A stretch of 38,984 bases of DNA, taken from IMG/VR virus record IMGVR_UViG_3300041097_000036, positions 1 to 38,984 of that record; one strand, given 5' to 3'. Position numbers and translations under genes: made by a program. The first letter of the stretch is position 1. Each line of letters begins with the position of its first letter. The notes under the pieces were generated by a model. It was not told where the DNA came from, did no database searches, and worked only from the letters and a program-made list of their open reading frames with translations. The stretch is from a virus. Taxonomy: Duplodnaviria; Caudoviricetes. Shown here piece after piece: positions 3,143 through 32,702 of the stretch.

Positions 3143-6031
3143 ATGATCGATCTCAACGACGCGAGCGCCCCTCCGCCCCGCTTCGATCTCGACGCGATCG
3201 CCGCGCGCCTGCGCGACACTGCGGCGGTCTGGGTGCCGCAGCATTTCCCGAACGGGAGGCGGGAAGGCGACGAATGGCGGCTCGCCAACATCCGTGGCGA
3301 TGCCCCGCGCAAGAACGGCTCCTGCGTCATCGCGCTCAAGGGCGAGCGCGCCGGCGACTGGATCGACTTCGACGGCGGCAGTGGCGGCGGGCCCCTGAGC
3401 ACGCTTGCAGAGGCGACCGGCTATGCCGGGCACCAGCTGTTCGCCTATGCGGCCGAGCTGGCAGGCGAAGCCCCATTCGCGGCACGCCCGAGAAAGAAGG
3501 CTCCGCGTCAATCATCCGACGACGTGGCGCGCGAGATCGCCTTCATCCTGTCGGGCGCACACCCGATCGCCGGCACGCATGCGGCAGCATATCTCGCCGC
3601 CCGCGGGCTTGCGCTGCCGGCGTCGCCCGATCTTCTCTTCCATGACGATCTCGCGCACTGGGAGGCGAAGCGGGGCTTTCCCGGCATGGTCGCCATCGTG
3701 CGCGACGCCGGTGGCGCGCAGATCGCGCTCCATCGCACCTATCTCGACCCCGAGAAGCCCGCCAAGGCCGACGTCGCGCCTGCGCGCAAGACACTCGGGC
3801 CGGTCGGCGGAGGCGCGGTGCGGCTGGCCGAGCCGCACGACGGCCTCATCGCTCTGACAGAGGGCATCGAGACGGCGCTCGCGGCGATGACCGCATGCCC
3901 GGACCTGCCCGCCTGGGCAACGCTGTCTGCATCCGGGTTGGAGAGTATCGCTCTGCCGTCCGGGATCGCCCAGGTGCTGCTGCTCGCCGACCATGACGAT
4001 GCCGGGCGCCGCGCCGCCGAGACAGCCGCCGTGAAGCTTGCGATGGAGGGCCGCGAGGTCTCCATCGCGCTGCCGCCTCGCGAAGGCGACGACTTCAATG
4101 ACCTGCTCCTGCGCGAAGGCCCAGAAGCGGTCAGGGCTGCCATCGACGCCGCCGTGGCCTGGGGTGGAGACGATACGGTGCCGGCCAACGACGAGGGCGC
4201 CCAACAGCTCGAAATGGACCCCGTCATCGGCGCCACGGCACCGGAACCCGACGAGGTGGCGCGCACGGCCGCTACCTATCCGCTGCCCTTCATCGAGGGC
4301 GTTGAGCTCCGCTACTTCCGCACGCGCAAGGGAGACGTCCTCGTCCACCGCAATGCCGGCAAGGACAAGGATGGCCATACCATCTGGCGCGTGGTCGCGA
4401 GCCCCTTCGGCATCCCCGCCCGGCTGCGCTATCTCGACCAGGAGGGGACCTATGGTCTGCGCCTGCTCGTGCGCGACATGCAGGGCGAGCCGCGCGCTGT
4501 CGACTTGCCGCGCGCCGGCCTCGCCCGCCAGGGTGCGCAGGAGATCCGCTCCGCCCTCTTCGCCGCGGGCCTGCGCACCTATGGCGATGGCGACCAGGTT
4601 GCGCTGGCGGTGCTCAAGGCGGCCGATCCACGGGACGAGATCCTCGTCGTCAGCCGGCCCGGCTGGCACCGGCTCGATGGCTGCGACCGTCCGGTCTTCG
4701 TGACGCCGGCGGGCCGGGCAATCGGCGATGTACCGGCCTCCACGCTGGAGCTTGTCGCCAACGCCCGATACGACACCGTGCGCGGCAGCCTCGACGGCTG
4801 GAAGGCCGCGGCGGCCGCCGCGGCATCCGTGAAGGGCTGTCCGCACTTCCTCCTCGGCGTGCTCGCGGGATTCTGCGGTGTCGTGCAGTCGCTCGCCGGC
4901 CTCGACAGCTGCGGCATCAATCTTTCCGGCCTCTCGTCGAGCGGCAAGACCACCGCCCAGCGCCTCGCCGTCTCCGCCTGGACCTCGACAGCCATCGGTG
5001 CCGGACTGCTCCAGTCGATGCGCTCGACCGAGAACGCCATCGAGGTCTTCGCCCAGGCGGCGAGCGGCACGGTCCTCGCCCTCGACGAGCTCGCCCACGC
5101 CGACGGCCGTGCCATCGCCAAGCTCATCTACGCCATCGCCGGCGGCCAGGGAAAGGCGCGCATGACGGCCGGCGCCATCCTCAAGCAGCGCTATGCATGG
5201 TCGACCTATGCACTGCTCTCCAGCGAGTGCTCCCTGGAGGAGAAGGTGCGCGCCGACGGCGCCGCCTGGATCGCCGGCATGGCGGTGCGCATCCTCGACG
5301 TCGATGTGACCGAGGTGGACCGCTCAGTGCCGCTGGCCAGGCTCAGGGCCATCGCTGATGCAGAAAGCCACTGCGGCCATGCTGGCCCCGCCTTCGTCGA
5401 GCGGCTGGTCGCGGCGAAGCTGCATCATGCGCCGGATGCGCTGCGCGACCGCATTCTCGAACAGGCGCGCGAGCTTGCAGGCGACCGCGCCGATTCCGCA
5501 CGGCTCAGAGCGGCGACCTGCCTTGCTCTCCCGCTCGTCGCCGGCAGGCTCGCCCAGGACTTCGATCTGCTGCCCTGGTCGATCGACATCGAAGCGCCGG
5601 TCCGCTGGGCCTGGGAGCGCTTCGAGAAGTCCTCCGATGCCGAGGCGCTCACCCCCGACGAGCAGGCGATCACGAGCCTGCGCGCCTGGATCGCGGAACG
5701 GTGGGACGTCACCATCAAATCGGTCGACATCGGCGTCGAGAGCTTCGACCGCAAGCTCAACAACCGTGAAGCCGTCGCCTGGTACGACGACGCGGCCATC
5801 TATGTGCCCGCGCAGCGCCTGCGCGAAGCAGCGGGCGAGACGCTGAAGACCCAGCAGATAGTCAAGGCGCTCGCCGACCGGGACCTGCTGGCGGCGCGCC
5901 AGGATCAGCGGCGGGCCACCGTGCGATGGGTCCCGAAGATCGGCCGCATCGACGCCTATGCGCTCAAGCGCTCCGAGTTCGGCCGCCGCTCGGCCTGGGC
6001 CGATCACGGAATACAGGAGGACGAGGCATGA
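3143..6031 (+). CDS. Toprim primase fused to DUF927 helicase-like domain
   Basis: EGIETAL and ADHDDAG Toprim motifs; GLSSSGKTT P-loop; LDEL Walker B. Confidence 0.88.
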   Translation: MIDLNDASAPPPRFDLDAIAARLRDTAAVWVPQHFPNGRREGDEWRLANIRGDAPRKNGSCVIALKGERAGDWIDFDGGSGGGPLSTLAEATGYAGHQLFAYAAELAGEAPFAARPRKKAPRQSSDDVAREIAFILSGAHPIAGTHAAAYLAARGLALPASPDLLFHDDLAHWEAKRGFPGMVAIVRDAGGAQIALHRTYLDPEKPAKADVAPARKTLGPVGGGAVRLAEPHDGLIALTEGIETALAAMTACPDLPAWATLSASGLESIALPSGIAQVLLLADHDDAGRRAAETAAVKLAMEGREVSIALPPREGDDFNDLLLREGPEAVRAAIDAAVAWGGDDTVPANDEGAQQLEMDPVIGATAPEPDEVARTAATYPLPFIEGVELRYFRTRKGDVLVHRNAGKDKDGHTIWRVVASPFGIPARLRYLDQEGTYGLRLLVRDMQGEPRAVDLPRAGLARQGAQEIRSALFAAGLRTYGDGDQVALAVLKAADPRDEILVVSRPGWHRLDGCDRPVFVTPAGRAIGDVPASTLELVANARYDTVRGSLDGWKAAAAAAASVKGCPHFLLGVLAGFCGVVQSLAGLDSCGINLSGLSSSGKTTAQRLAVSAWTSTAIGAGLLQSMRSTENAIEVFAQAASGTVLALDELAHADGRAIAKLIYAIAGGQGKARMTAGAILKQRYAWSTYALLSSECSLEEKVRADGAAWIAGMAVRILDVDVTEVDRSVPLARLRAIADAESHCGHAGPAFVERLVAAKLHHAPDALRDRILEQARELAGDRADSARLRAATCLALPLVAGRLAQDFDLLPWSIDIEAPVRWAWERFEKSSDAEALTPDEQAITSLRAWIAERWDVTIKSVDIGVESFDRKLNNREAVAWYDDAAIYVPAQRLREAAGETLKTQQIVKALADRDLLAARQDQRRATVRWVPKIGRIDAYALKRSEFGRRSAWADHGIQEDEA

Positions 6032-6059
6032 CGGCGCGCGTCCGTCCGTGCACGCGCGC

Positions 6060-6470
6060 TGTGGCAACTATGGCCAGTGTGGCCACGCATGGGCGTGTGG
6101 CCATTGTGGCACCTGTGGCCAGTGCCGCCGCGCCCGGCCATGTGGCCACTGTGGCACCTGTGGCCACTCCGCCCGCGTCGGCCGCCGCAGCAGGCATTCC
6201 AGTGGCCACACTTGCCACACGGCAAATCGCTGTGGCCACTGTTAACGCATTGATGAACAAGGGCAGTTGCCACACTTTCCACCGTGGCCACAGCTGGGGG
6301 ACAGATATAGGGGAAGAGAGGCTCTTCCGTTCTTGCGGGAAGGTGCGGAGGGGTCGCGCGTCAATTTTATCTCTAGGAAGTGGAAAGTGTGGCAAGTGTG
6401 GCCACTCGCCTTTGTCTTCAAAGGCTTATCAGTGGCCACATGAAATTCCGATGTGGCAACTGTGGCCACT
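6060..6470. repeat. Iteron-like repeat cluster, putative replication origin
   Basis: Nine GTGGCCAC palindromes (6079, 6142, 6160, 6202, 6232, 6284, 6398, 6432, 6462), 9-bp TGTGGCnnn periodicity, inverted repeats 6202-6220/6387-6405, AT-richer patches; directly after the primase gene. Confidence 0.75.
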
Positions 6471-6678
6471 GGCGAAGATCGCCCGCCTTTCCGCACATCT
6501 CCGCCGTCGCCGGTCATGGACGCTGACCCTTATGGCGACGAGCGCGCTGCCACGGCAACGAGTCCGCGATCCTCCGTCCCATCGGTGATCCCGAGCCAAG
6601 CGGACGACGACGGCCAGCTCCGCCAAGAACCAGACCGTCGCCGTCCTGACCACAACGATCCCGATCACGGAGACCATC

Positions 6679-7663: not shown

Positions 7664-8096
7664 GACACGCTGGACGCCGTCGCTGGTCGAGGAGCGGCTC
7701 GCCGAGGCGGCAAGCGTGCTCAAGCGGCTGCCCGAGCCGAAGCTGCAGGGCTATTACAATCTTTGGCCCAGGATCATCTACGAGTTCAGTGATCTGGTGG
7801 GACAGGAGCCCAGGCCGATGCGTGTGCTGCCGTCGCCCGCAGCGATCAGCCGCATGGAGGAGACCCTGACCTGGACCGGTGGCCTCGACCCTGTTGACGG
7901 CAAGATCGTCTGGATGCGCGCCTTCGGCGAGCGCTGGAAGACCATCTGCTGGACCGTCGGGCTGCAGCGCTCCGCCGCCCACGAGCACTGGCTCTATGGG
8001 CTCTGCGTGATCGCGTGGCGGCTCAATGGGCGGCGGCTCAATCGCAATCATTCGCGGCGCAAAGTGATCGAGATGACCGGAGCGGCGAAGCCTTGA
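7656..8096 (+). CDS. DUF6362-like protein, possible late-transcription regulator
   Basis: AGGAGG RBS; WTPSLVEERLAEAA, PSPAAISRMEE, C-terminal HTH-like segment; last gene of the early operon. Confidence 0.75.
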   Translation: MAETRWTPSLVEERLAEAASVLKRLPEPKLQGYYNLWPRIIYEFSDLVGQEPRPMRVLPSPAAISRMEETLTWTGGLDPVDGKIVWMRAFGERWKTICWTVGLQRSAAHEHWLYGLCVIAWRLNGRRLNRNHSRRKVIEMTGAAKP

Positions 8097-8106
8097 GAAG
8101 TAAAGA

Positions 8107-8131
8107 GAAAGGTGTCCGGCGGACACTTTTC
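8107..8131. promoter_or_regulatory. Dyad GAAAGGTGTCC-GGC-GGACACTTTTC, possible late-promoter or regulator site
   Basis: Near-perfect inverted repeat in AT-richer DNA just after the DUF6362-like gene. Confidence 0.4.
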
Positions 8132-8246
8132 GCTCGGACAAAATCGGTCGGTTCCGATAGGGTAACCAAGCATCCTGGATCATTGCGTCACGCGCTGATC
8201 TGCCCCGTCCGGAGGGACGAGGACGGCTCCTCTGTGTCAAGGATTG

Positions 8247-8612
8247 ATGCCAAAGGACCGGGTTCGACTGATCCAGCCAGAGCAGAACACCGTGCCGCGC
8301 AAGCATCGGGGCGCTCACGCCGAGATGATCGCGGCGTGCTGGCTGATGGAGCATGGCTGGGATGTCTTCCGGAACCTTTCACCTCACGGGCCGGTCGACC
8401 TGGTTGCGATCAAGGGAGATCAGGTGCGCCTCTTCGACGTGAAGCTGTGCAATTTCCGGCCACGGGAAACTGGCGGCTGGCAGGTTGCTGGCCCGGTCCT
8501 CAAGTCGAGCCAGGCGGCCCTTGGTGTCGAGCCGATCTTCGTGACGCCTGACGGGCTGTGCGCGTTCGACCGGCGAGCGTTCGAGGCTCTGTGCGAGGGC
8601 CTCGCCGATTAG
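8247..8612 (+). CDS. Small PD-(D/E)XK endonuclease-like protein (moron)
   Basis: GAHAE...L..HGWDV...VDLVAIKG...LFDVK pattern. Confidence 0.65.
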   Translation: MPKDRVRLIQPEQNTVPRKHRGAHAEMIAACWLMEHGWDVFRNLSPHGPVDLVAIKGDQVRLFDVKLCNFRPRETGGWQVAGPVLKSSQAALGVEPIFVTPDGLCAFDRRAFEALCEGLAD

Positions 8613-8673
8613 GTTTCGATTGGACGGAGGCGAACCGAGCGCGAGCTTCGACCTCTTTCAGGGGCGCTGAGGC

Positions 8674-8723
8674 ATGTGATGAAACGGCTGTCATCAGCCG
8701 CACGTACAGCCGTTTCATGACAT
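8674..8723. terminator. Stem-loop between convergent genes
   Basis: ATGAAACGGCTGT (8679-8691) / ACAGCCGTTTCAT (8706-8718) perfect 13-bp arms; no U tract. Confidence 0.4.
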
Positions 8724-8729
8724 CGCTCG

Positions 8730-10001
8730 TCAGACCTTCCCCATGGACGCAAAGCGATCGATGACGAGCTTGGTCTCGCGATCGATGACGTCGACCACCC
8801 GGGCGATGACCGGTCGATCCTTGCCTTCGGCAGCAAACCGTCGTTGCACATCGCGCGCGGCTTGAGGCAGAGCTCGCGCAAGATCGAGCAGCCGGCGGCG
8901 GACCTGCGGAAAGGCGAGTCCCGCCTCCTTGGCGAAGCGCTCCCAGTGGCGGGGGTAGATCGCGCCTGTTTCGTCTTTGCCGCCGATCCTCATGGCGAGC
9001 CGCGGTGAGAGACCGGGGTACACGTCCGTCGAGACCACATCGTAAAGGGGAGCGAGCTGAAGACCTTCGTCGGTGAACAGCAAGGAGAAGTTCTTGCCGT
9101 GCGCGTCACGATTGCCGATCAACAGGTTGAACAGCACGGCGTCGAGGAGACGGGCCAGGTCCACGACGGGACGCACGGCGGCGTTCCGCACGAGCTCGAA
9201 GCATTGGCGTAAGCTTGGGCCGCCTTCGGACTGGTACTTCAGCTCAGGCACGATGCCGAGAGCCTGGCAGAAATCCTCCTGGTGCAGCCGGCGGACGGCG
9301 CCGTCTCTTCCCCGAGCCCGGTCATAGCGGGCGACGAGCAGAAAGGGACGATCGCCGACCGCGCGAATCTCCGCCGCGGCGACGTCGAGCCCGATGGCCT
9401 TGGCGAGCGCGAGGCAGAACCCCTCGTTGAAGACCGTATCCTCGAAGCGCCGGATCGGAGGCTTTAGAATGTGGGTGCTCGGCGCGCCATGGAGCGGCAA
9501 GGCGATCCGTCCGTCGACGACGAGAACGGGCAGCTTGTCCTGCGCGCCGGCGAGGCTGAGGCGCACGCCTTCCTCACCGGCGAGCAGAGGCCGATCGGGA
9601 AGCACATCGAGAATGCGCCTTAATTCGCCGTCATCGAGAAGCCTGTAGTCGGCCTCCTTGGAAACAGGCGGCGGCGTCTCACCGGCATGAAGAAGCGTGA
9701 TGGCGCCGGCGCATTCGCCGCCGATCCGGTCGAGCAACGCGAAGTCGTTGCGATCCGAGACGCCGAGCGCGCGCGCCACGAGCTCACGCTTCTCGGCCTC
9801 CGGCAGGAGGCCCGCGAAGAAAGGGCGCGTTTCCCGGTGATTGAAGGGCTCTGATCTGAGCGGGAGAGACCACGAGATGGGAACGCTTGCCGGGTCGGCC
9901 AGCCAGGCCTCGTGATAGGTGAAGCGAAGCTGACCGGAATCGTCCTGCACCAGCGTGCCCACGAGCCGCTGCTCGAAATAGACCTCAAGCTCTCGGGCCA
10001 T
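8730..10001 (-). CDS. hipA: HipA family Ser/Thr kinase toxin
   Basis: N-terminal couple domain (PISWSLP, FFAGLLPE), SLAGAQDK, HILKP, LHQEDFCQALG, GNRDAHGKNFS, LAPLYD. Confidence 0.96.
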   Translation of the reverse strand: MARELEVYFEQRLVGTLVQDDSGQLRFTYHEAWLADPASVPISWSLPLRSEPFNHRETRPFFAGLLPEAEKRELVARALGVSDRNDFALLDRIGGECAGAITLLHAGETPPPVSKEADYRLLDDGELRRILDVLPDRPLLAGEEGVRLSLAGAQDKLPVLVVDGRIALPLHGAPSTHILKPPIRRFEDTVFNEGFCLALAKAIGLDVAAAEIRAVGDRPFLLVARYDRARGRDGAVRRLHQEDFCQALGIVPELKYQSEGGPSLRQCFELVRNAAVRPVVDLARLLDAVLFNLLIGNRDAHGKNFSLLFTDEGLQLAPLYDVVSTDVYPGLSPRLAMRIGGKDETGAIYPRHWERFAKEAGLAFPQVRRRLLDLARALPQAARDVQRRFAAEGKDRPVIARVVDVIDRETKLVIDRFASMGKV

Positions 10002-10260
10002 TTGCGCGGTCCTTGTCCTTCAGTGTGGGTGGCATCGTCAGTTCGAGGGAGCACCCGAGCGTTCGGAGCACCTGGAGCACCTTGCCGATCTGAGCGGTAG
10101 GCTTGCCCTGCTCCAGCTCGATGATGAAACGGCGGTTCGTGCCGGAGGTGAGGGCGAGCTGGTCCTGCGTAACGCCGAGCGCGCGGCGCGCCTCGCGCAC
10201 GAGGTTGCCCAAGCTTTTGCTGTCCGTGATCTTCATCGTCATGTTCCCGATCGGGAACAT
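9985..10260 (-). CDS. hipB: HipB-like Xre HTH antitoxin (start could be 10260, 10242 or 10236)
   Basis: LGNLVREARRALGVTQDQLALTSGTNRRFIIELEQGKPT; overlaps the hipA start. Confidence 0.9.
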   Translation of the reverse strand: MFPIGNMTMKITDSKSLGNLVREARRALGVTQDQLALTSGTNRRFIIELEQGKPTAQIGKVLQVLRTLGCSLELTMPPTLKDKDRANGPRA

Positions 10261-10360
10261 CTGGATCAGATTGACCCTCGTCCTTGCCGAATGTTCCCGC
10301 TCGGCCACATTACCCCATGGCTGCCGCGTCATCAAGCAGAATGTTACCGTTCGGGAACAT
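10241..10360. promoter_or_regulatory. Three 20-bp palindromic HipB operators and a putative sigma70 promoter
   Basis: ATGTTCCCGATCGGGAACAT (10241), ATGTTCCCGCTCGGCCACAT (10291), ATGTTACCGTTCGGGAACAT (10341), 50-bp period; minus-strand TTGATG-17 bp-TAATGT at 10335-10307. Confidence 0.8.
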
Positions 10361-10410
10361 CCAATTCGACACCCGAATGCACCCAAATCGACCTAACCCT
10401 TTGAAATCAC

Positions 10411-10601
10411 GGGTCCTCCCTGGCCGAGATCGTATGCTGGCGGCAATGGCCCGAAAGCTCGCTACCGACAGCCCGAAAATCTGAGTTACCACCAGGCGGT
10501 GGTTACCACCCGCCCATTGGCAAATCTGTTGCCCGATCAAATGCTTGCCGCCCCGAAACGGGTGGCGGCCTCAGTGGTAACTGGTAACCGCGGTTACCAC
10601 C
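10411..10601 (+). other. Lambda-like cos packaging site (cosQ, cosN, cosB-like repeats)
   Basis: GGGTCCT (lambda cosQ sequence) at 10411-10417; TATGC-TGGCGGCAATGG-CCCG resembles lambda cosN; GTTACCAC(C) repeats at 10485, 10502, 10574 (reverse), 10593; phage encodes a gpA-type terminase. Confidence 0.7.
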
Positions 10602-10639
10602 CCGTCCTTCCGGATTCCGAGGTCCCTATCGCCACGGCT

Positions 10640-10820
10640 GCCCGACGCGGTCGGGTGATGACCGGGCTCGTTCTGCGGACCTTGCTTTGTTCCCCGGCGG
10701 CCACCGGGGATGAGACGCGACCATGTGCGATCCGAGCTTCATCGGGTCCGGTGGTCGCATTCGTGTGACCCCCTGACTCGCGTCCGGGGCGTGGCCGCGC
10801 CGGACCCGATGGAGACCATC
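10640..10820 (+). promoter_or_regulatory. Highly structured 5' leader of the RAMP-like gene
   Basis: Hairpins at 10641-10655 and 10691-10710; 10737-10751 is complementary to 10800-10814, which covers the GGAG RBS. Confidence 0.5.
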
Positions 10821-11489
10821 ATGGCAGCAGTCAAGGAAACGACCCAGATCGAGCTCCCGCCGCTCAACCTGGAAATCATCGAAGTCACGCTGATTGGCGA
10901 CACGCCGCTGATCTCGCACGCCTGGTCGGAGAAGGCCAAGCGCGAGATGCTCGGCAAGCAGATGAAGGTCGCCAAGCCGGCCAAGGAGGCGAAGGACCCG
11001 CACGAGGACTTTCAGCAGAGCCTCTATCGGATCGAAGGCGGCGGCTATGGCTTTCCCTCGGTCGCCTTCAAGGCGGCTGCGGTCACCGCCTGCACTTCGG
11101 TTGCCGGAATCACCAAGGTGGCGGCGCGCCAGGCATTCCATGTGGTGGGCGCGCAATCGGTGGTGCGCGGCGCCTTCAACGGCGCGCTGATGCGGATGGA
11201 CCTGGTGCGCATTCTGGGATCGGAGCCGGAGATGCGCGAGGACATGGTGCGGATCGCCATGGGCACTGCCGACATCCGCTACCGCGGGCAGTTCTGGCCC
11301 TGGCATGCCACGGTGCGGGTGCGCTTCAACGCCAATGTGCTGAGCGCGGCGCAGATCGTGAACCTGTTCAACACGGCGGGGTTCGGTGTGGGCATCGGCG
11401 AGTGGCGTCCCGAGAAGGACGGCCAGTTCGGCATGTTCCATGTGGCGACCGCCGATGAGCTGCAGCGCCTCGTTGCGGAGGCCGCGTGA
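10821..11489 (+). CDS. Stand-alone Cas7/RAMP-like RNA-binding protein (Vipr-like), 222 aa
   Basis: GGAG RBS; IEVTLIGDTPL first strand, GFPSVAFKAA (cf. RAMP P.SslKG), C-terminal Gly-rich loop GFGVGIGEWRPEKDGQFGMFHV. Confidence 0.75.
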   Translation: MAAVKETTQIELPPLNLEIIEVTLIGDTPLISHAWSEKAKREMLGKQMKVAKPAKEAKDPHEDFQQSLYRIEGGGYGFPSVAFKAAAVTACTSVAGITKVAARQAFHVVGAQSVVRGAFNGALMRMDLVRILGSEPEMREDMVRIAMGTADIRYRGQFWPWHATVRVRFNANVLSAAQIVNLFNTAGFGVGIGEWRPEKDGQFGMFHVATADELQRLVAEAA

Positions 11490-11995
11490 TGGATAGGCTC
11501 GAATATGCCTGGCGCGACGGCGCGCGGTTGCAGAAGGGCGCCCGCGTCCCGGCGCAGGCGGTGGGCGAGCGGCTGGAACGGCTGCGTGCCGCCGGCGCCG
11601 GCGAACTGACGCCGGAAGCGGTTGTCGAGGATGCGCGCCATCCGGCCTCGCCGCTGCATTCGCTGTTCGAATGGGACGACACGCAGGCCGCCCATCAATA
11701 TCGCCTGGTGCAGGCGCGCGCCGTGATCCGTGCCGTCATCGTGCGCTACCGGGCCGCTGCCGGAGATGGCGCGCGCAGCGTGGTGGCGTTCGTGAACCTG
11801 AAGGACGGCGACCGCCAGTACTACACCGCCACCGCGGTCGCGCTGTCGGATCCCGCGCGGCGCGCCATTGCGTTGCGCCAGGCCTGGGAGGATTTCCAGG
11901 CGCTGCGCCGGCGCTACGCGCAACTGGCCGAGTTCGCCCAACTGTTCGCGGCGCTCGACGAGATCGAGCGGGCACTGCCACCGCTGGCGGCGTGA
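11486..11995 (+). CDS. Conserved phage hypothetical protein, partner of the RAMP-like gene
   Basis: GTGA overlap with the RAMP-like gene; LTPEAVVEDARHPASPLHSLFEWDD..AAHQYRLVQAR motif; stop 9 nt before the array. Confidence 0.85.
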   Translation: MMDRLEYAWRDGARLQKGARVPAQAVGERLERLRAAGAGELTPEAVVEDARHPASPLHSLFEWDDTQAAHQYRLVQARAVIRAVIVRYRAAAGDGARSVVAFVNLKDGDRQYYTATAVALSDPARRAIALRQAWEDFQALRRRYAQLAEFAQLFAALDEIERALPPLAA

Positions 11996-12004
11996 CTTCT
12001 CAAT

Positions 12005-12235
12005 GGCGTGGCTAGGCTAGGTCTGGCGCCGTCGGCGGGGCGCGGCAAGGCCTGGTCGGGCATGGCTGGCGGTGTTTGGCACGATCGGGCTGGTCCAGGC
12101 GTGGTGAGGCTTGGCACGGCAGGCGCCGCATGGCTGGTTCTGGTCCGGAAGGGCCGGGCAAGCCTGGGCGGGGCAAGTCGTGGCCGGCATGGCGTGTCGA
12201 GGTTGGCGGGGCTGCGCACGGCAAGGCGGCTTGCC
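12005..12235 (+). ncRNA. GGY-NN pentamer array, putative guide RNA precursor
   Basis: 46 consecutive units; 35 start with GGC/GGT and the other 11 differ by one base; NN variable; ends in hairpin GGCAAG-GCGG-CTTGCC (12220-12235). Confidence 0.75.
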
Positions 12236-12255
12236 ACGGACTGATCCAAACAACC

Positions 12256-13668
12256 ATGCGCGATCTTCGCTTTCAGGCCTCGGCCATCGAGCAGTGGCCG
12301 ATCGGGAAGCTCGTTCCCTATGCGGCCAATGCCCGGACCCACGACGAGCGCCAGATCGGCCTCCTGGCGGGAAGCCTGGTCGAATATGGCTGGCTCGTTC
12401 CCTGCTTGATTGACGACGGGGGCACGCTGATCGCGGGGCATGGCCGCGTGCTGGCGGCGCAGCGTCTCGGCCTCAAGAGCGTGCCGGTGATCCGGATCTC
12501 GCATCTGACGCCGGCCCAGCGCCGCGCCTATCGTCTTGCCGACAACAAGCTCACCGAACTCGGCGGCTGGAACGAGGACCTGCTCGCGGCGGAACTGCAT
12601 GCGCTGAACGGCGAGGGCTTCGATCTCGACGGCCTCGGCTTCGACGAGGCCGAGCTCGATCGGCTGATGGCGCCGCTCGACGACACGGATGCGATGTCGC
12701 CGGACGGCGAGACCAAAGAAGGCAGCGACGCGGACGATGCGCCCGAGCCGCCGCGCGAGCCCGTAAGCCGGCCGGGCGATCTCTGGCGGCTCGGCGATCA
12801 TCGGCTGCTCTGCGGCGACAGCACGGACGCGGGGTCTGTTGCCCGGATCATGGATGGCGAGCGCGCATCGCTGCTGTTCACGAGCCCGCCCTACGGCAAC
12901 CAGCGGAACTACACCACCGGCGGCATCGGCGACTGGAACGCCCTGATGCGCGGCGTCTTCGGCCACCTTGCCGAGGTGGTGGCCGAGGATGGCCAGGTGC
13001 TCGTCAATCTCGGCCTCGTCCACCGCGACAACGAGTGGCAGCCCTATTGGGAGGCCTGGCTCGACTGGATGCGGGCGCAGGGCTGGCGCCGCTTCGGGCT
13101 CTACGTCTGGGACCAGGGGCCCGGGCTCCCCGGCGACTGGAACGGCCGGCTCGCGCCCGCCTTCGAGTTCGTGTTCCACTTCAATCGCAAGCCGCGCAAG
13201 CCGAACAAGATCGTGCCCTGCAAGTGGGCCGGCCACATCAACGACAGCCACGGCGGCATGCGGGGCAAGGACGGGACGGTGGGCGAATGGACGCATGCCG
13301 GCCAGGGCGTCCAGGAGACGCGCATCCCCGACAACGTGCTGCGCATCACCCGCCACAAGGCGCGTGGGCTGGAGACCGAGCACCCGGCGGTGTTTCCGGT
13401 GGCGCTGCCCGAGTTCGTGATGCGCGCCTATAGCGACGAAGGCGATGTCGTCTACGAGCCGTTCGCGGGTTCGGGCACCAGCATCATCGCCGGCGAGCGG
13501 ACCGGCCGGCAGGTGCGAGCGATCGAGCTTGCACCGGAGTACATCGACGTCGCGCTTCTGCGGTGGCGGCAGCTCTTCCCCGATCAGCCAGTGATCCTCG
13601 ACGGCGGGACCGAAGACTTCGAAGCGGTCGCAAGGCAGCGCGGCGTTGGGCTTGCGCCGATCTCTTGA
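12256..13668 (+). CDS. ParB-N domain + N4/N6 DNA methyltransferase
   Basis: PYAANARTH, IAGHGRV, YRLADNK; HRLLCGDS, TSPPY, HPAVFP, EPFAGSGT. Confidence 0.92.
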   Translation: MRDLRFQASAIEQWPIGKLVPYAANARTHDERQIGLLAGSLVEYGWLVPCLIDDGGTLIAGHGRVLAAQRLGLKSVPVIRISHLTPAQRRAYRLADNKLTELGGWNEDLLAAELHALNGEGFDLDGLGFDEAELDRLMAPLDDTDAMSPDGETKEGSDADDAPEPPREPVSRPGDLWRLGDHRLLCGDSTDAGSVARIMDGERASLLFTSPPYGNQRNYTTGGIGDWNALMRGVFGHLAEVVAEDGQVLVNLGLVHRDNEWQPYWEAWLDWMRAQGWRRFGLYVWDQGPGLPGDWNGRLAPAFEFVFHFNRKPRKPNKIVPCKWAGHINDSHGGMRGKDGTVGEWTHAGQGVQETRIPDNVLRITRHKARGLETEHPAVFPVALPEFVMRAYSDEGDVVYEPFAGSGTSIIAGERTGRQVRAIELAPEYIDVALLRWRQLFPDQPVILDGGTEDFEAVARQRGVGLAPIS

Positions 13669-13670
13669 GG

Positions 13671-13761
13671 GGCAGGCAATCCGGAGCGGCGCCGGCGCGG
13701 CCGGCATGGCGCGTCGAGGCTTGGCGGGGTTTGGCAAGGCATCGCCCGGCTGTCCTGGTCG
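13671..13761 (+). repeat. Second, shorter GGY-NN array
   Basis: GGCC GGCAT GGCGC GTCGA GGCTT GGCGG GGTTT GGCAA GGCAT CGCCC GGCTG (13699-13752); homologous to 12182-12229; intergenic. Confidence 0.7.
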
Positions 13762-13779
13762 TCCGCCTGTGAGCCCATC

Positions 13780-15060
13780 ATGAAAGACCTTCGCTTCCGG
13801 TCCTCGGCGATCGAGCTTTGGCCAGTCGACCGGCTCATCCCCTATGCGGGCAACGCGCGTGTGCACGGCGAGGATCAGGTGGCAAGGCTTGCCGAAAGCC
13901 TCGTGCGCTTCGGCTGGACCGCACCCTGCCTCGTCGATGAACGCGGTGTGCTGGTCGCCGGTCACGGCCGGCTGCTTGCGGCCCGGAAGATCGGGCTCAG
14001 GGAAGTGCCGGTCATCCGCCTCGACCACTTGAGCGACGCGGAGGCGCGTGCCTACCGCATCGCCGACAACAAGCTGACCGAGCTTGCCGGCTGGGATGAC
14101 GCGATGCTCGCAGCTGAGCTAGGGCGGCTCAAGGAGGACGGGATCGACCTCGATCTCCTCGGCTTTGGCGAGGACGAGCTCGACCGCCTGCTCGATGACC
14201 TGAACGGGACCGATGGCGCGACGGAGGGCGAGGACGCCGTCCCGGAGCCGCCTGTGGAACTCGTCTCGCGCCCGGGCGACCTCTGGCTGCTTGGCGCGCA
14301 CCGCCTGCTCTGCGGCGACGCCACCAGTACGAGCGACGTCGAGCGGCTGCTCGCGGGCGCGGTTCCGCACCTGATGGTGACGGACCCGCCCTATGGGGTC
14401 GAGTACGATCCCTTTTGGCGCAACGAGGCCGGCGTATCGGCGACCGCGCGGACCGGCCGCGTTTCGAACGATGACCGTGCCGACTGGCGCGAGGCCTGGG
14501 CGCTGTTTCCGGGCGACGTCGCCTATGTCTGGCATGCGGGCGTCCATGCGCGCACCGTCGCCGAGAGTCTGGAGGCGAGCGGGCTGATGATCCGTTCGCA
14601 GATCGTCTGGGCGAAGCCGCGCTTCGTGCTCGGCCGTGGCGACTACCATTGGCAGCACGAGCCGTGCTTCTACGCGGTCCGCAAGGGCGCGAGCGGGCAC
14701 TGGCAGGGCGCGCGCGACCAGTCGACGCTGTGGACGATCCCCTGGTCAAGCCAGGGGACCAGCGGCGGCGATGAGGACGAAGCGACGACACACGGCACGC
14801 AGAAGCCGGTCGAGTGCATGCGCCGGCCGATCGTCAACAACAGCCGGCGCGGCGATCGCGTCTACGAGCCCTTCGCCGGCAGCGGCACGACCATCGTTGC
14901 CGCGGAGAGCACGGGGCGCGCCTGCCTCGCGCTGGAGATCGACCCGCGCTACTGCGACGTCATCGTCGAGCGGTGGCAGGCGTTCACGGGATCGCCCGCG
15001 ATCCTCGAGGGTGATGAGCGGACCTTTGCGGACCTGAAGGACGAGCGGGCGGCGGCGTGA
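13780..15060 (+). CDS. ParB-N domain + N6-adenine DNA methyltransferase
   Basis: VAGHGRL, YRIADNK, TDPPY, HGTQKPV, EPFAGSGT. Confidence 0.93.
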   Translation: MKDLRFRSSAIELWPVDRLIPYAGNARVHGEDQVARLAESLVRFGWTAPCLVDERGVLVAGHGRLLAARKIGLREVPVIRLDHLSDAEARAYRIADNKLTELAGWDDAMLAAELGRLKEDGIDLDLLGFGEDELDRLLDDLNGTDGATEGEDAVPEPPVELVSRPGDLWLLGAHRLLCGDATSTSDVERLLAGAVPHLMVTDPPYGVEYDPFWRNEAGVSATARTGRVSNDDRADWREAWALFPGDVAYVWHAGVHARTVAESLEASGLMIRSQIVWAKPRFVLGRGDYHWQHEPCFYAVRKGASGHWQGARDQSTLWTIPWSSQGTSGGDEDEATTHGTQKPVECMRRPIVNNSRRGDRVYEPFAGSGTTIVAAESTGRACLALEIDPRYCDVIVERWQAFTGSPAILEGDERTFADLKDERAAA

Positions 15061-15272
15061 AGCAATCGCGCACCATGTCGCTGGTCGAGGCGATCGCCAA
15101 CGTGGCCGTCGGTTTCGGCGTGGCGGTGCTGGCGCAGATCGTGGTGTTCCCGATCTTTGGGCTTCACATGCCGTTCACGGACAACCTTCTCATCGGCGCG
15201 ATCTTCACGGGCCTGTCGATCGGGCGCTCCTACGCGCTGCGCCGGCTGTTCGAGGCCCTGCGGCGGGCATGA
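15057..15272 (+). CDS. Small membrane protein typical of phage MTase clusters
   Basis: KQSRTMSLVEAIANV, two hydrophobic segments, RSYALRRLFE. Confidence 0.8.
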   Translation: MKQSRTMSLVEAIANVAVGFGVAVLAQIVVFPIFGLHMPFTDNLLIGAIFTGLSIGRSYALRRLFEALRRA

Positions 15273-15412
15273 CCGGGGCGCGGCCGCGCCCCGTCCCCCC
15301 GGATCATCAAATGATCCGGCCGGGCCGGAAAAAGTAATCAGATTAACCGCTTATCCGCTTGGCTCCGGGCCGAAGCAGCGCCTCTATGGCGGCACAGACG
15401 ATGGAGACCGCC

Positions 15413-15775
15413 ATGAACGCCATCCTGCAGACCGCCAACCCCGATTGGGGCTTCTTCGGGACCATCCGCCACCACGCCGACCCCGCCGAGGCCTGGACGA
15501 TCGCAATGCCGGCGATCGCCGCCGCGACCGGCTGCCCCGATGCCGCCGTGCGCGACTTCCTCGACAGCCGGCACGGCCGCCACTTCGCCGACGACGTCGC
15601 TGGCGGGCTCTTCAGGGGCCTCGATCTGAGAGCCGCCGTCGAGGCCGCGGTGGACCGCTGGATGGGCTGGACCATCGGCCGCCGCACCGAGCGCGAATAC
15701 GGCATCCCGCTCGGGCTGCCGTACCTGACCGGCTTCGTCACCCACTGCGAGATCGAGGCCGACGCCTTCGCCTGA
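15413..15775 (+). CDS. Hypothetical phage protein
   Basis: GGAG RBS; WGFFGT, FLDSRHGRHFADDV, YGIPLGLPYL. Confidence 0.8.
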   Translation: MNAILQTANPDWGFFGTIRHHADPAEAWTIAMPAIAAATGCPDAAVRDFLDSRHGRHFADDVAGGLFRGLDLRAAVEAAVDRWMGWTIGRRTEREYGIPLGLPYLTGFVTHCEIEADAFA

Positions 15776-15874
15776 TCGAGCCGCCTCGCCCATGGCCCCG
15801 CGCCGCATCGCGGCCGGGGCTCGGGGTGGTAGAAGCGCCGCGATGGTCGCGGCGCCCTGCCCAAGGAGGCACCG

Positions 15875-16345
15875 ATGACCAAGACCGAGCTTTCACCCAC
15901 CCAGCAGTCGCTCCTGAAGTCCGCCGCCGGCTGCGAGGACCGCGCCATCCGCTGGCCCGACAATCTCCGGGGCGGCGCGCGCACGAAGATCATCACGGCG
16001 CTCGTCGAGGCGGGATTCGCGGAGAACCGGAAGGGCACGCTGGTCGTGACGGAGGCAGGCATGCGCGCCGTCGGCGTCGCCCCCGAGGCTGCACCCAAGC
16101 GCGCCCCGCACACGAAGGCCGCCGGGGCCCCGCGCAAGATGCGCGAGGGCAGCAAGCAGGCGCGCCTGATCGAGATGCTGAAGCGCAAGGAGGGCGCAAG
16201 CATCGAGGAGATCGTCGAGGCCTTCGGCTGGCAGCCGCACACCGTGCGCGGCGCCATCGCCGGAGCGCTCAAGAAGAAGCTCGGCCTGACCGTCACATCC
16301 GAGAAGGTGGATGGCCGCGGCCGCGTGTACCGGATCGAGGCCTGA
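15875..16345 (+). CDS. DUF3489 domain protein
   Basis: REGSKQARLIEMLKRKEGASIEEI...GWQPHTVRGAIAGALKKKLGL; AAGGAGG RBS. Confidence 0.88.
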   Translation: MTKTELSPTQQSLLKSAAGCEDRAIRWPDNLRGGARTKIITALVEAGFAENRKGTLVVTEAGMRAVGVAPEAAPKRAPHTKAAGAPRKMREGSKQARLIEMLKRKEGASIEEIVEAFGWQPHTVRGAIAGALKKKLGLTVTSEKVDGRGRVYRIEA

Positions 16346-19573: not shown

Positions 19574-19786
19574 ATGACGCTCGAAGAGATGATCGCGCGC
19601 CGCGATGCGCTGCTCGCCGCCCGTTTCCGCGGCGTGCGTACCGTCGAGATCGAAGGCCGGCGCATCACCTATGCGACCGATGCCGAGATGGCCGCCGCGC
19701 TTGCCGACCTCGAGCGGCGCATCGCCGAGGAGAAGGCGGGCGCCCGCCGACGCATCGTTCGCACGACGGCAAGCAAGGGGCTCTGA
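19574..19786 (+). CDS. Head-tail joining protein (gpW-like)
   Basis: GVRTVEIEGRRITY; lies between terL and portal. Confidence 0.85.
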   Translation: MTLEEMIARRDALLAARFRGVRTVEIEGRRITYATDAEMAAALADLERRIAEEKAGARRRIVRTTASKGL

Positions 19787-19789
19787 CCC

Positions 19790-21268
19790 GTGCTGGAATC
19801 GATCACACGGTGGCGCCGCCGCATCGGCGCACTGGTGGGCGGCTTTGAAGCGGGACAGGGAAGCCGAAGACTGCGGCACTTCCAGCCGAGCCGGGCGCAT
19901 CTCAACACGCTGATCGCCGCCGCCGGCGCCGACATCACCGCGCGCGCCCGCTGGCTCGTGCGCAACAACGGCTATGCGGCGAACGCCATCGAAAGCTGGG
20001 CCGGCAACGTGGTGGGCGACGGCATCAAGCCGTCGTCCCTGATCGCCGATGCCGATCTCAAGGCGCGCGTGCAGCGCCTCTGGCTCGACTGGACCGACGA
20101 CAGCGACGCGGAGGGGTTCACCGACTTCTACGGCCAGCAGCGACGCGCCGCGCGCGAGGTGTTCATCGCCGGCGAGGTGTTCTTTCGCTTCCGTCCGCGC
20201 CGGCCCGAGGACGGGCTCATGGTGCCGCTGCAGCTGCAGATGATCCCGTCGGAGATGCTGCCGCTCACGCGCAATGAGCCGCTTCCCGGCGGCAACGTCA
20301 TCTGCCAGGGCATCGAGTTCGATCGGATCGGTCGGCGCGTCGCCTACCATTTTCTCCGCCGCCATCCGGGCGACATCACCGACCCAGGGCTGGTAGGCGA
20401 GACGGTGCGGGTGCCGGCGTCCGAGATCATCCACGTCATTGATCCGGTCGATGCGGGGCAGTTGCGCGGGATCTCCCGCTTCGCGCCGGGCATCGTGAAG
20501 CTGTTCCTGCTCGATCAGTACGACGATGCGGAGCTCGACCGGAAGAAGGTCGCGGCGATGCACGCGCTCTTCATCACCACGCCGGCGCCGGCGGAGCCGT
20601 TCGATGTCGCCGAGAGCGACGAGGCGGGCGAGCGCACCATGGACCTGCAGCCCGGCCAGATCGTGATGCTGGAGCCGGGCGAGGAGGTGCAGACCTCGGC
20701 ACCGGCGGATGTCGGCCAGACCTACGAGCCGTTCCAGTACCGGACGCTCCTGCAGGTCTCGGCGGCGCTCGGCATTCCGTACGCATATCTGTCGAACGAC
20801 ATGTTGAAGGCGAACTACTCGAACTCGCGGCTCGCGCTCCTCGAGTTTCGCCGCCGCATTGAGGCGTATCAGCATTCGGTCATGGTCTGGCAGATCTGTC
20901 GGCGGGTCTGGGCACGATGGCTCGATACGGCGGTCGTTTCAGGCGCGCTTGCCTTGCCCAATTACGAACAGCAGAGGCGCGTTTATCTCGGCTGTTCCTG
21001 GCTGCCGCCCAAATGGGACTGGGTCGATCCGCTGAAGGACGCGCGCGCCGAGATCGAACAGATCGAGGCGGGGCTGAAGAGCCGGACGCAGGCGCTCGCC
21101 GAGCGCGGCTATGACGCCGATCAGGTCGATGCCGAGATTGCTGCGGACCGTGCGCGAGAGCGCCAGCTTGGCCTCTCCTTCGGCAGCGCCTCATCCGACC
21201 CGACGCTGCAGACCGATGCTCAAGAGGCTGCTCCAGCCGACAACCAGGCGAACGTCGCCGCCGACTGA
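19790..21268 (+). CDS. Portal protein, lambda family
   Basis: ARARWLVRNNGYA, GIEFDRIGRRVAY, GQLRG, ANYSNSR, WVDPLKD. Confidence 0.95.
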   Translation: MLESITRWRRRIGALVGGFEAGQGSRRLRHFQPSRAHLNTLIAAAGADITARARWLVRNNGYAANAIESWAGNVVGDGIKPSSLIADADLKARVQRLWLDWTDDSDAEGFTDFYGQQRRAAREVFIAGEVFFRFRPRRPEDGLMVPLQLQMIPSEMLPLTRNEPLPGGNVICQGIEFDRIGRRVAYHFLRRHPGDITDPGLVGETVRVPASEIIHVIDPVDAGQLRGISRFAPGIVKLFLLDQYDDAELDRKKVAAMHALFITTPAPAEPFDVAESDEAGERTMDLQPGQIVMLEPGEEVQTSAPADVGQTYEPFQYRTLLQVSAALGIPYAYLSNDMLKANYSNSRLALLEFRRRIEAYQHSVMVWQICRRVWARWLDTAVVSGALALPNYEQQRRVYLGCSWLPPKWDWVDPLKDARAEIEQIEAGLKSRTQALAERGYDADQVDAEIAADRARERQLGLSFGSASSDPTLQTDAQEAAPADNQANVAAD

Positions 21269-21275
21269 GGTTTCC

Positions 21276-22595
21276 ATGACGCGATTGAATCCGCTGCTCA
21301 CCCGGCTCGGCGGCCGGCCCTTGGCGATCGCCCCGCGGGCGCTCGACGGCCTGCTCGCCGCCGGCCCAATGCTCGATACCCGTCCGGCCATGCTTCCGGC
21401 CCGCAATGCGTCTCCAGGGGCGAGTCATGTTCTCACCGAGGCCGGCATCGCCGTGGTGCCTATCGTCGGACCGCTGGTGACGCGCGGCGACTGGCTCACC
21501 AGTCTCCTCGGCGCCAACGACTATGGCGAGATCGCCAGCGCCATCGAAGCCGCGCTGGCCGATCCAGCCGCGCGGGCCGTGTTGTTGGAGATCGACTCGC
21601 CGGGCGGCGAGGTCGGCGGTCTGTTCGACCTGGTCGATCGCCTCGTGTCCCTGCGCGAAGCCGCGCAGAAGCCGCTCTGGGCTGTCGCGAGCGAAAGCGC
21701 GCTGTCGGCTGCCTTTGCCATCGCCAGCGTGGCGGACCGCCTTTACGTCACCCGGACGGCGGAGGTCGGATCCATCGGCGTCGTCGCCATCCATGTCGAC
21801 GAGAGCGTCGCCGACGTCATGGCCGGCCTCAAATGGACGCTCGTGCACGCGGGCGACCGCAAGATAGATGGCAATGCCCACGAGCCGCTCTCGGATACGG
21901 CGTTTTCGGCGATCCAGGCGGATGTCGACGCGCTCCATGCCGACCTCGTCACCCTGGTGGCGCGCAATCGGAACATCAGTCCCGACGCCGTGCGTGCCAC
22001 CGAAGCCGCGATCTATCGGGGTCAGCGCGGCATAGACGCCGGCCTCGCCGACAAGCTCGGCACTGCCGATCTCGCTCTTGCGGATCTCGCCCGGGCGCTT
22101 GACCCGCCACGCCTCATCGCGGGCGCATCGCAACGCGCCCGCGCTCATCAACCTTCAAGGAGAAACACCAAGATGACAGTCGAACCCGACCGCAACCCGG
22201 CTGCCGAAGACGCCGCGGTCAGCGAGACCCGCGCACCCGATCCGGAAACGCCCGAGGCTCCGCTGTCGGCGCCGCCGGTCGTTGTAACGGATGTAGCCGA
22301 CGAGCCCAGCGCCGATCAAACGGCCGAGCGGCTGCGTGCCGAATATGCGGAGATCGCCGCCATCGCCGCCCAAGGCGCCCGGCTGGGCGTCGCCATCGAC
22401 GCCGCCGACGCCATGGCGAAGGGAGTGGCGCCGCATGCGCTGCGAAGCTCCATCCTCGACGCCCTCGCGGCACGCGCCGAGGCGAGCTCTGTCGTCGCCG
22501 TGGCGCCGTCACCGGCCGGCTGGCCGGCATCGAACGGCGGCGAAAGCCCCATCGTACGTCGTGCGCGTGAGCGCGCCTCGGCCAACCGCAGCTGA
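21276..22595 (+). CDS. S49 prohead protease (gpC-like)
   Basis: IDSPGGEV, ALSAAFAIAS, VGSIGV, GLADKLG. Confidence 0.92.
   Translation: MTRLNPLLTRLGGRPLAIAPRALDGLLAAGPMLDTRPAMLPARNASPGASHVLTEAGIAVVPIVGPLVTRGDWLTSLLGANDYGEIASAIEAALADPAARAVLLEIDSPGGEVGGLFDLVDRLVSLREAAQKPLWAVASESALSAAFAIASVADRLYVTRTAEVGSIGVVAIHVDESVADVMAGLKWTLVHAGDRKIDGNAHEPLSDTAFSAIQADVDALHADLVTLVARNRNISPDAVRATEAAIYRGQRGIDAGLADKLGTADLALADLARALDPPRLIAGASQRARAHQPSRRNTKMTVEPDRNPAAEDAAVSETRAPDPETPEAPLSAPPVVVTDVADEPSADQTAERLRAEYAEIAAIAAQGARLGVAIDAADAMAKGVAPHALRSSILDALAARAEASSVVAVAPSPAGWPASNGGESPIVRRARERASANRS
22173..22595 (+). CDS. Nested in-frame scaffolding protein (Nu3-like)
   Basis: Internal AAGGAG RBS at 22157-22162 before in-frame ATG 22173; acidic, Ala/Pro-rich product. 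Confidence 0.65.
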   Translation: MTVEPDRNPAAEDAAVSETRAPDPETPEAPLSAPPVVVTDVADEPSADQTAERLRAEYAEIAAIAAQGARLGVAIDAADAMAKGVAPHALRSSILDALAARAEASSVVAVAPSPAGWPASNGGESPIVRRARERASANRS

Positions 22596-22612
22596 CGACA
22601 AGGAGGATCATC

Positions 22613-23002
22613 ATGACCGTTCTCACCATGTCGCCGACCCTCGGCGACCTGCTCAAATACGAGCTCAATGCGAGCTACTGCCGCGAGGCTGTGACCCTCA
22701 AGGCCGGAACCGACTACGCGCTCGGCTCCGTGCTGGGAAAGATCACGGCCTCAGGCAAGTACCGACTTGCGCCGGCGGCCGAGGTAACCGGCGACGAAGG
22801 GGCGGAGATCGCAACGGCCGTCCTGATCGAGGCGGTCGACGCGACGGCCGGCGACAGGACCGGCCTCGTGATTGCCCGCGGCCCGGCGATCGTCTCGAAG
22901 GCGGCGCTCGTCTTCGACGCCTCCGTCGATGACGCGACCAAGACGGCGGCCAAGCACGCCGAGCTCAGTTCTGCCGGCATCGTGCCGCGCGACACCGCCT
23001 GA
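22613..23002 (+). CDS. Head decoration protein (gpD-like)
   Basis: GSVLGKITASGKY; lies between protease and capsid genes. Confidence 0.88.
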   Translation: MTVLTMSPTLGDLLKYELNASYCREAVTLKAGTDYALGSVLGKITASGKYRLAPAAEVTGDEGAEIATAVLIEAVDATAGDRTGLVIARGPAIVSKAALVFDASVDDATKTAAKHAELSSAGIVPRDTA

Positions 23003-23031
23003 TCCACGCTCGTCGGATCCAATCTGTCACC

Positions 23032-23063
23032 GGCTCCGAGGCGTCCGCCTCCGGGGCCTTTTT
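23032..23063 (+). terminator. Intrinsic terminator-like hairpin before the capsid gene
   Basis: GGCTCCG-AGGCGTCCGCCT-CCGGGGCC followed by TTTTT. Confidence 0.55.
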
Positions 23064-23096
23064 CATGCCCGTTCCATCCCAAGGAGACCCGACATC

Positions 23097-24119: not shown

Positions 24120-24121
24120 GC

Positions 24122-25080: not shown

Positions 25081-25174
25081 CCCCGTCTTCGCCTTCTTCG
25101 CATCCCGGTGCATGTGCGCGCCGCACCGCGTGCGGAGCGATCAGCTGCATTGCCCTCAAGCCTGAGGAAAACCA

Positions 25175-25609: not shown

Positions 25610-25631
25610 TCTTCAAGAACAGGAGTTATCC

Positions 25632-26903: not shown

Positions 26904-26913
26904 GGATGCATCC

Positions 26914-30081: not shown

Positions 30082-30092
30082 CGGACTGAACC

Positions 30093-32696: not shown

Positions 32697-32702
32697 ACTC
32701 TC

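Follow-up and report, generated by a model that had tools for sequence, protein, structure and literature searches.

The window, that is the whole stretch of 38,984 bases analysed here, holds a lambdoid phage genome with a primase, HipA/HipB-type genes, two ParB-methyltransferases, small and large terminase, portal, protease, capsid and tail genes. On its plus strand, a two-gene unit (10821–11489 and 11489–11995) is followed after nine bases by an array of pentamers (12005–12229), which ends 26 bases before the first methyltransferase gene. The first gene of the unit codes for a RAMP/Cas7-like protein of 222 aa (phrog_4652), in the following called Vipr; the second, the start of which overlaps the vipr stop, codes for a vap-like accessory protein of 168 aa (phrog_15946, unknown function). 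Downstream lie the phage's own ParB-methyltransferase 1 (12256–13668, +), a second array (13699–13752, +) made of a junction unit and a 10-unit guide (13703–13752), and ParB-methyltransferase 2 (13780–15060, +). Both methyltransferases match Pfam N6_N4_Mtase and, weakly, ParB_N. The second array, directly upstream of methyltransferase 2, had been missed in the initial annotation. Neither a CRISPR repeat/spacer array in a tandem-repeat scan nor a cas family among the 26 window proteins was found. With vipr, one accessory gene, no CRISPR array or cas genes, and a phage genome as its setting, the locus corresponds to a minimal VIPR locus.

Two further features of the neighbourhood may be mentioned. 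A HipA-type kinase and an HTH antitoxin are encoded divergently from vipr (8730–10386, −). Repeats with a 9-base period (GTGGCCA/GTGGCAA-like) occur at 6059–6173, 6380–6402 and 6452–6471, inside an ORF (5926–6588) downstream of the primase, and similar words (GGTTACCAC, GGTAAC) return around 10480–10610, upstream of vipr; possibly these are origin iterons or operator sites. The named nearest relatives of Vipr come from alphaproteobacterial bins (99% identity in one labelled Sphingomonadaceae) and relatives at 98% reside on contigs of 434–490 kb. Therefore, the host is likely an alphaproteobacterium and the phage likely temperate.

The array consists of 46 units, 35 of which start with GGY, while the remaining 11 deviate by one mismatch and none by more. 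The initial annotation had parsed it into such units, which when joined are identical, letter for letter, to the sequence of 12005–12229. It had also proposed an autocorrelation test. In this test GGY is followed by GGY at a distance of five 19 times, compared to 2.7 ± 1.6 in 5000 dinucleotide shuffles (maximum 11, none reaching 19), and the lag-5 identity amounts to 0.47 compared to 0.33 ± 0.03 (again 0 of 5000). Tandem Repeats Finder did not report the array. Open frames span it on both strands, and one could think of a low-complexity coding stretch, for instance an N-terminal extension of the methyltransferase (ORF 12076–13668), or of a slippage microsatellite. The initial annotation had argued that neither fits, and we agree. 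In all five array-crossing frames tested, GC is flat over the codon positions (0.67–0.76), whereas the three flanking genes show 0.44–0.51 at position 2 and 0.85–0.87 at position 3; lengths and indels of the arrays in close relatives break the frame; and, as described below, the variable dinucleotides decode to genes of other elements at one skip only. The target matches and the flat codon-position GC refute a coding or microsatellite origin, to which we assign practically no probability.

Five units are only 4 nt long (starting at 12030, 12064, 12118, 12182 and 12201). It had been suggested that those at 12064, 12118 and 12182 delimit about four guides, and indeed each of the blocks between them matches a different natural target under a one-base-skip code. 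The resulting guides are g1 (12005–12063, 12 units), g2 (12068–12117, 10 units), g3 (12122–12181, 12 units) and g4 (12186–12229, 9 units), all on the plus strand, separated by junction units at 12064–12067, 12118–12121 and 12182–12185, where the phase breaks and the guides on either side match different genes. The two other 4-nt units do not act as borders: unit 6 of g1 (12030–12033) and unit 4 of g4 (12201–12204) are each one base short, and we read them as deletions within the guides. A partition at all five sites into six short guides was rejected, as full-length targets appear once 12030 and 12201 are read as deletions, and the relatives L006 and L007 carry a 5-nt unit at the position in g4.

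Comparison of the 222-aa product with PDB sequences gave a sole match, the Vipr protein of phage SUSP1 (36pp_D), with E 0.0064 for the single sequence and 1e-6 for a profile of 105 sequences; the match is confined to residues 145–208. No Pfam family matched, and a tblastn search from the window Vipr at E 1e-3 did not reach SUSP1. Homologs of Vipr are numerous, 7704 among 8000 candidates scored. The predicted model (pLDDT 88) retrieves Csm3/Cmr/Cas7 chains in Foldseek with E down to 3e-5, and the best 38 rows of a VIA search are all CRISPR-Cas entries (best Z 9.9, rmsd 3.9–4.2, about 150 aligned residues). In the SUSP1 structure paper, H17, D177, R138, W178 and R179 contact GGY and K33 contacts the target backbone (bioRxiv 10.64898/2026.04.26.720927). 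The corresponding residues of the window protein are H33 (H17), E194 (D177), R155 (R138), W195 (W178), R196 (R179) and K49 (K33), the pairings of H33 and K49 lying in a low-scoring N-terminal part of the alignment. K49, R155, W195 and R196 are invariant among the 105 sequences, H33 and E194 conserved to at least 90%. Judged by sequence and model, the protein is a RAMP fold with thumb and G-loop, homologous to the described Vipr.

The accessory protein was found by tblastn in 33 phage records, whose organism counts equal those of 33 out of 34 vipr-bearing records. Its model is of high quality (pLDDT 91), without a Foldseek match at E 0.001; the best VIA result (Z 4.5) falls on a helical hairpin, and searches of Pfam, PDB sequences and, by tblastn, SUSP1 remained negative. 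Homologs of both proteins also exist in Gordonia and Mycobacterium phages (H1–H32, e.g. ODay, Pipp, Brocalys and Saal), with 38–43% identity for Vipr.

Among the 80 best related viral loci, some of which represent the same phage, 65 carry a pentamer array (parser score at least 16), always on the vipr strand and always with 4-base steps. Over the 3935 units of these arrays the entropy is 0.30, 0.86 and 1.27 bits at positions 1–3 and 1.93 and 1.97 bits at positions 4 and 5, as expected from the proposal that a constant triplet alternates with a freely variable dinucleotide. The commonest 4-base step is GGCA (323 of 471), the one found at the g2/g3 junction, and 229 of 403 internal blocks count 9–12 units. 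The turnover of blocks anticipated in the initial annotation was observed as well: g3 and g4 are common to the window and L001–L004, g2 to L001–L003 (diverged in L003) and g1 to L001 and L002, while L003 and L004 have different 5' guides. In the window and L001–L004, shared 3' and replaced 5' guides hint at a polar gain of guides. L007 keeps the first four dinucleotides of g1 and differs in the middle, hence turnover is not strictly polar. In blocks that are homologous, changes affected 11 of 366 GGY positions and 15 of 244 NN positions, counts taken from relatives that are not independent. Some of the related arrays are very long or very regular. Staggered arrays of 184–229 units with about 20 guides each are located at L037:6245–7370, L069:6151–7103 and L038:6245–7149, and L012 has three very regular arrays (4715–4857, 5708–5805 and 6445–6572), situated upstream of, between the genes of, and downstream of its vipr locus.

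For decoding, the guide dinucleotides were joined with one wildcard base each, following the rule of the discovery paper (bioRxiv 10.64898/2026.04.26.720920). All four guides of the main array decode to natural targets, and every time the skipped base is the wobble base of the target codons. At skip 1 the scores are 21/22 for g1, 19/20 for g2 and 22/24 for g3, as opposed to 12–17 at skips 0, 2 and 3; no guide-target scan at these other skips rose above background. When the unit order was shuffled, 0 of 200 trials reached the score of g1, g2 or g3, a control in which the significance of the scanning guide comes out too high, because the target contigs had been chosen with parts of that guide. 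Matches of guides other than the selecting one are free of this bias and are given below.

A scan with eight dinucleotides of g3 returned five hits. In one of them, contig G001, three additional dinucleotides outside the search pattern matched as well, 11 in a row; the other four were discarded as chance-like (one sequence, 17/26), and so were five of six hits of a third 8-dinucleotide pattern (16–21/26). The g3 targets are G001:14166(+), 22/24 with the first 11 dinucleotides perfect, and G003:31544(+), 22/24. In G001 the site is antisense to a small phrog_18541 gene (LPHFRLGSQIA), between an HTH-like gene and the primase and downstream of the integrase. The scan with g1, taken as one guide with a broken sixth unit, gave 43 hits, 41 of which were dismissed as they did not extend over the three upstream dinucleotides. 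Only G002 and G003 matched all three; there, at G002:1705(+) and G003:15287(−), the guide agrees with the sense strand of a small gene (VYYLATEAKLRM) at 21 of 22 scored bases, and the one mismatched base is matched in the relative L002. The target genes of g1 and g3 belong to one family, phrog_18541. Finally, g2 matches with 19/20 a tyrosine integrase gene, on the sense strand of the stretch coding for the N-terminus (GLTRWQVEFT), in G002, G003 and G004, the last of which stems from a g2 scan (five hits, two of them followed up); an exact 10-dinucleotide g2 scan of metagenome contigs had no hits. Taking all guides of the main array together, g1, g2 and g4 read the sense strand and g3 the antisense strand.

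G002 and G003, both selected with g1, also hold the g2 site, and G003 in addition the g3 site, located in a second element. Two guides of L004 that are unrelated to those of the window hit the same elements, with 23/26 in the neighbouring HTH-like gene and 20/22 in the integrase. When 244 guides of relatives were compared with five contigs, 15 pairs reached at least 85% at skip 1 and none did so at other skips; all 15 involve guides of L001–L004, the two unrelated L004 guides included. A further relative of the g1/g3 target gene, in G006 (L100), scored only 15/22 and 18/24, and for g4 and the second-array guide the satellite-like contigs yielded no match, 69 and 192 of 200 shuffles scoring equally well. 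Self-targets for g2 and g3 were not found within the window (best 17/26 and 14/22), and among the relatives' guides 5 of 324 match their own locus at 85% or more.

The five target elements, all in incomplete records, share an integrase-regulator-primase-terminase-capsid gene set, with a primase or primase-helicase, a large terminase, a protease-capsid and often methyltransferases or nucleases; G001 also has a portal. No tail gene or holin was seen among the longer ORFs scanned in these records, which are 31–86% complete. In G003 two satellite-like elements stand in tandem (C1:2700–17200 and 19600–34400), the first matched by g1 and g2 and the other by g3; Mrr-like, HNH and methyltransferase genes are among their cargo. 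As far as these incomplete records go, the elements resemble capsid-forming PICIs, which, according to PMC10085698, likewise combine integrase, small regulators, primase, large terminase and capsid and lack tail and holin genes; they differ from the PICIs described there in a lambda-type gpA terminase and a fused protease-capsid. Target and system can meet in one genome, since G002 and the VIPR-bearing L003 share the prefix of their source id. No Vipr homolog was found in the target contigs or at the methyltransferase-site loci. G001 has six GG/TY-NN-like pentamers inside an ORF of the target element (C1:10966–10995, +), too short to be called a solo guide.

A different class of targets emerged for g4. 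With eight dinucleotides and the broken unit filled in from L006/L007, the scan found at least 121 loci (about 270 estimated), compared to 5, 5 and 6 hits for other patterns of the same size, and 111 of 120 hits examined read (I/M)VEFGWTNP, a motif of the ParB domain of phage ParB-methyltransferases. The ninth g4 dinucleotide is a mismatch in the window and a match in L006. The second array looks like the 3'-terminal part of the main one (77% over 75 bases in L001), and the ParB motif it specifies is a different one. Its guide was recognised as ParB-like before the scan, in which the eighth step was left open. At least 120 loci resulted (about 200 estimated); 99 of 119 examined are ParB-like, most commonly SIAEFGFNVPCLV (41). 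At the eighth step, most hits (66 of 119) deviate by a single base, and the tenth, which was not part of the scan, matches in 45. A comparison of 458 distinct guides, taken from all vipr loci collected, with 252 kb around the g4 hits yielded seven guides at or above 90% at skip 1, and no guide reached this level at another skip. All seven point to ParB-methyltransferase motifs, the catalytic DPPY region included; one of them is the g4 version by which the set had been selected and another the second-array guide. In L005 (6183–6450) at least two of five guides match methyltransferases of other phages (catalytic DPPY region 20/20, linker 22/24), and a third reads like a ParB motif.

Immediately downstream of each methyltransferase guide lies one of the phage's own alleles, which does not match. 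In methyltransferase 1, the site homologous to the g4 target (12376, LVEYGWLVP) scores 9/14 with g4 and 13/20 with the guide of the second array; in methyltransferase 2, the homologous site (13900, LVRFGWTAP) scores 12/20 with the second-array guide and 9/14 with g4. The phage would thus escape its own guides because its alleles differ at the paired positions. The second-array guide is found in the window and eight related records, each of them with the insensitive allele (12/20). L004, whose Vipr is 94% identical, is without this guide and its second methyltransferase is sensitive (19/20); likewise, L007/L399 are without it and have a sensitive allele (17/20). L005 and L475 have other methyltransferase-type guides at the same position. 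A free-standing homing endonuclease linked to a resistant allele offers an analogy to such a pairing of guide and immune allele. It is conceivable, if still tentative, that anti-ParB guide and insensitive allele travel as one cassette and silence the late region of siblings which lack it, an allele-specific warfare suggested by this co-occurrence in records that represent few lineages, several being the same phage. Against a strict rule stands L007, the first methyltransferase of which matches the filled g4 pattern with 14/16, while L007 keeps a shortened version of this guide.

From this body of evidence we conclude, with a probability of roughly 93%, that the repeat is the guide array of a phage VIPR system, with four predicted guides that would silence genes of satellite-like elements and rival phages. 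The system and its staggered layout are already in print in preprints of 2026 and hence do not constitute a new kind; VIPR arrays have also been recovered in bulk, according to a fourth preprint (10.64898/2026.10.21.760802). In the discovery paper, guides of staggered vrRNA arrays originate from positions overlapping by 1 nt (fig. S18 legend). The staggered layout agrees with the window in several respects: vipr plus one accessory gene, GGY/NN pentamers, 9–16 units per guide, guides that abut at a one-base offset, a one-base-skip code on the wobble position, location on a phage and other mobile elements as targets. The type II system of SUSP1 (PDB 36pp) has a homologous Vipr with the same contact residues, and its guides are likewise directed against a satellite including the recombinase gene, with lower matches to self than to the rival. 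These guides are separate, about 100 nt long and each provided with a conserved pseudoknot tail, whereas those of the window abut. The structured 3' tail that each type II guide of SUSP1 and P. fulva has is absent from the window array, and no conserved tail was found, as the sequence following g4 differs among the window, L001–L004 and other loci. In addition, the F5 satellites of SUSP1 possess tail modules and no capsid, but the targets of the window possess terminase and capsid, with no tail gene seen. The Cas7/Csm3 backbone of class 1 CRISPR systems (types III-A/B, IV and VII) has the same RAMP fold with thumb and G-loop. Those systems differ by direct repeats, contiguous spacers and several cas genes, whereas here the specificity resides in gapped dinucleotides; searches for contiguous targets (skip 0) were empty.

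How the array is expressed can be discussed with regard to its sequence and relatives. It would probably be transcribed together with the upstream vipr and accessory genes and the transcript cut at the 4-nt junctions into four RNAs. Between 10300 and 12400 neither a sigma-70 promoter nor a plus-strand terminator was found. Contigs from four RNA-labelled runs, which may hold DNA and carry no information on transcription, ends or strand, cover 8000–16000 thinly and evenly. The array folds with a z-score of −2.6 (2 of 200 shuffles as good); a small hairpin at 12220–12235 is not kept in L002/L004, and Rfam returned two weak microRNA matches, both outside the array. Alternatively, one long unprocessed RNA might be used, or another cutting rule, with the 4-nt units only resetting the register of the filament. 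In its favour, no processing nuclease or conserved hairpin was identified at the array, and the confirmation by sRNA-seq in the discovery paper concerns ribozyme arrays and single guides, not staggered arrays. The separate RNAs described in its fig. S18 legend speak for cutting, and so does the bias of the junctions to GGCA, combined with the observation that only 2 of 12 guide-target pairs show full pairing of the junction unit and that the g1/g2 junction unit pairs with neither g1 target, as expected of a signal and not of a code. By these pairings the junction unit lies mostly outside the code, and we regard a single uncut RNA or a different cutting rule as rather improbable.

A second question is whether all guides are still functional. 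The one-base deletions have likely made g1 and g4 weaker or defective, and the units at the 3' ends of g3 and g4 do not match the targets of these guides. Together with the GGY changes within homologous blocks, the deletions suggest that part of the array may be decaying. An extreme version, which accepts the code and the targets as genuine but places them in the past, with some or all guides dead, could refer to these deletions in two of four guides, common to several relatives, to the 11 of 46 non-canonical units, to the junctions at 12064 and 12182 that differ from the usual GGCA, to a further insertion in g1 of L001 and to the fragmented arrays of L006 and L476. Such a locus in decay is nevertheless unlikely. 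Neither vipr nor the accessory gene is disrupted, and none of the six contact residues is missing; g2 and g3 have kept their phase, with matches of 95% and 92% to elements existing today; the g4 deletion, common to the window and L001–L004, fits tolerance as well as drift; and internal degeneracy of guides is frequent in the discovery paper, too.

For the mode of action of the predicted VIPR guides, the SUSP1 system provides the model. According to bioRxiv 10.64898/2026.04.26.720920 and.720927, each repeat is held at its GGY by one Vipr subunit, while NN pairs with the target strand without need for a PAM, and the resulting gapped R-loop represses transcription on either strand. Silencing of the satellite recombinase lets the phage propagate (SUSP1 papers, including 10.64898/2026.10.15.759431). 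By analogy, in the phage described here the variable dinucleotides would match every first and second base of target triplets, and the Vipr-RNA filament would bind and silence the target genes. With g1 and g3, the phage would silence the early regulatory/replication region in two kinds of apparently tail-less, capsid-forming elements, and with g2 the integrase gene in one of the two. The satellite-like elements would thereby be kept from excising, from replicating and from using the tails of the phage. For g4 and the second-array guide, the genes to be blocked would be the ParB-methyltransferase genes of related phages. In the window, these genes lead into terminase, portal and capsid genes of the same orientation, hence a roadblock at this point could have a polar effect on packaging. 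Alternatively, the benefit may be that the rival loses protective methylation.

In the text of the discovery paper, natural targets have been reported only for the SUSP1 and P. fulva clades and for types III and V. Methyltransferase genes and capsid-forming satellites as targets, and a guide linked to an insensitive allele, were not found in the consulted parts of the VIPR preprints, whose data files may already contain these targets or this clade. The words "methyl", "ParB" and "PICI" are absent from the text of bioRxiv 10.64898/2026.04.26.720920, the first two also from its supplement PDF, and "methyltransferase" is absent from the main text of 10.64898/2026.10.15.759431; nor did we find literature joining Vipr, GGY and methyltransferase. 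Our analysis thus provides a fully decoded staggered array, the guide boundaries of which are fixed from natural targets. These boundaries matter, as the discovery paper gives no sRNA-seq confirmation for the staggered layout. To the targets in the texts searched, two classes are added, one being alphaproteobacterial satellite-like elements that form capsids and apparently lack tails, the other the ParB-methyltransferase genes of rivals. Cultured actinobacterial phages with homologs of both proteins could serve as test systems, and guide acquisition and sibling exclusion can be put to the test in the close relatives, in which some guides are shared and others replaced. The hint of polar guide gain may offer a route to how VIPR guides arise, and a compact, tail-less multi-guide array would represent a natural format for multiplexed silencing.
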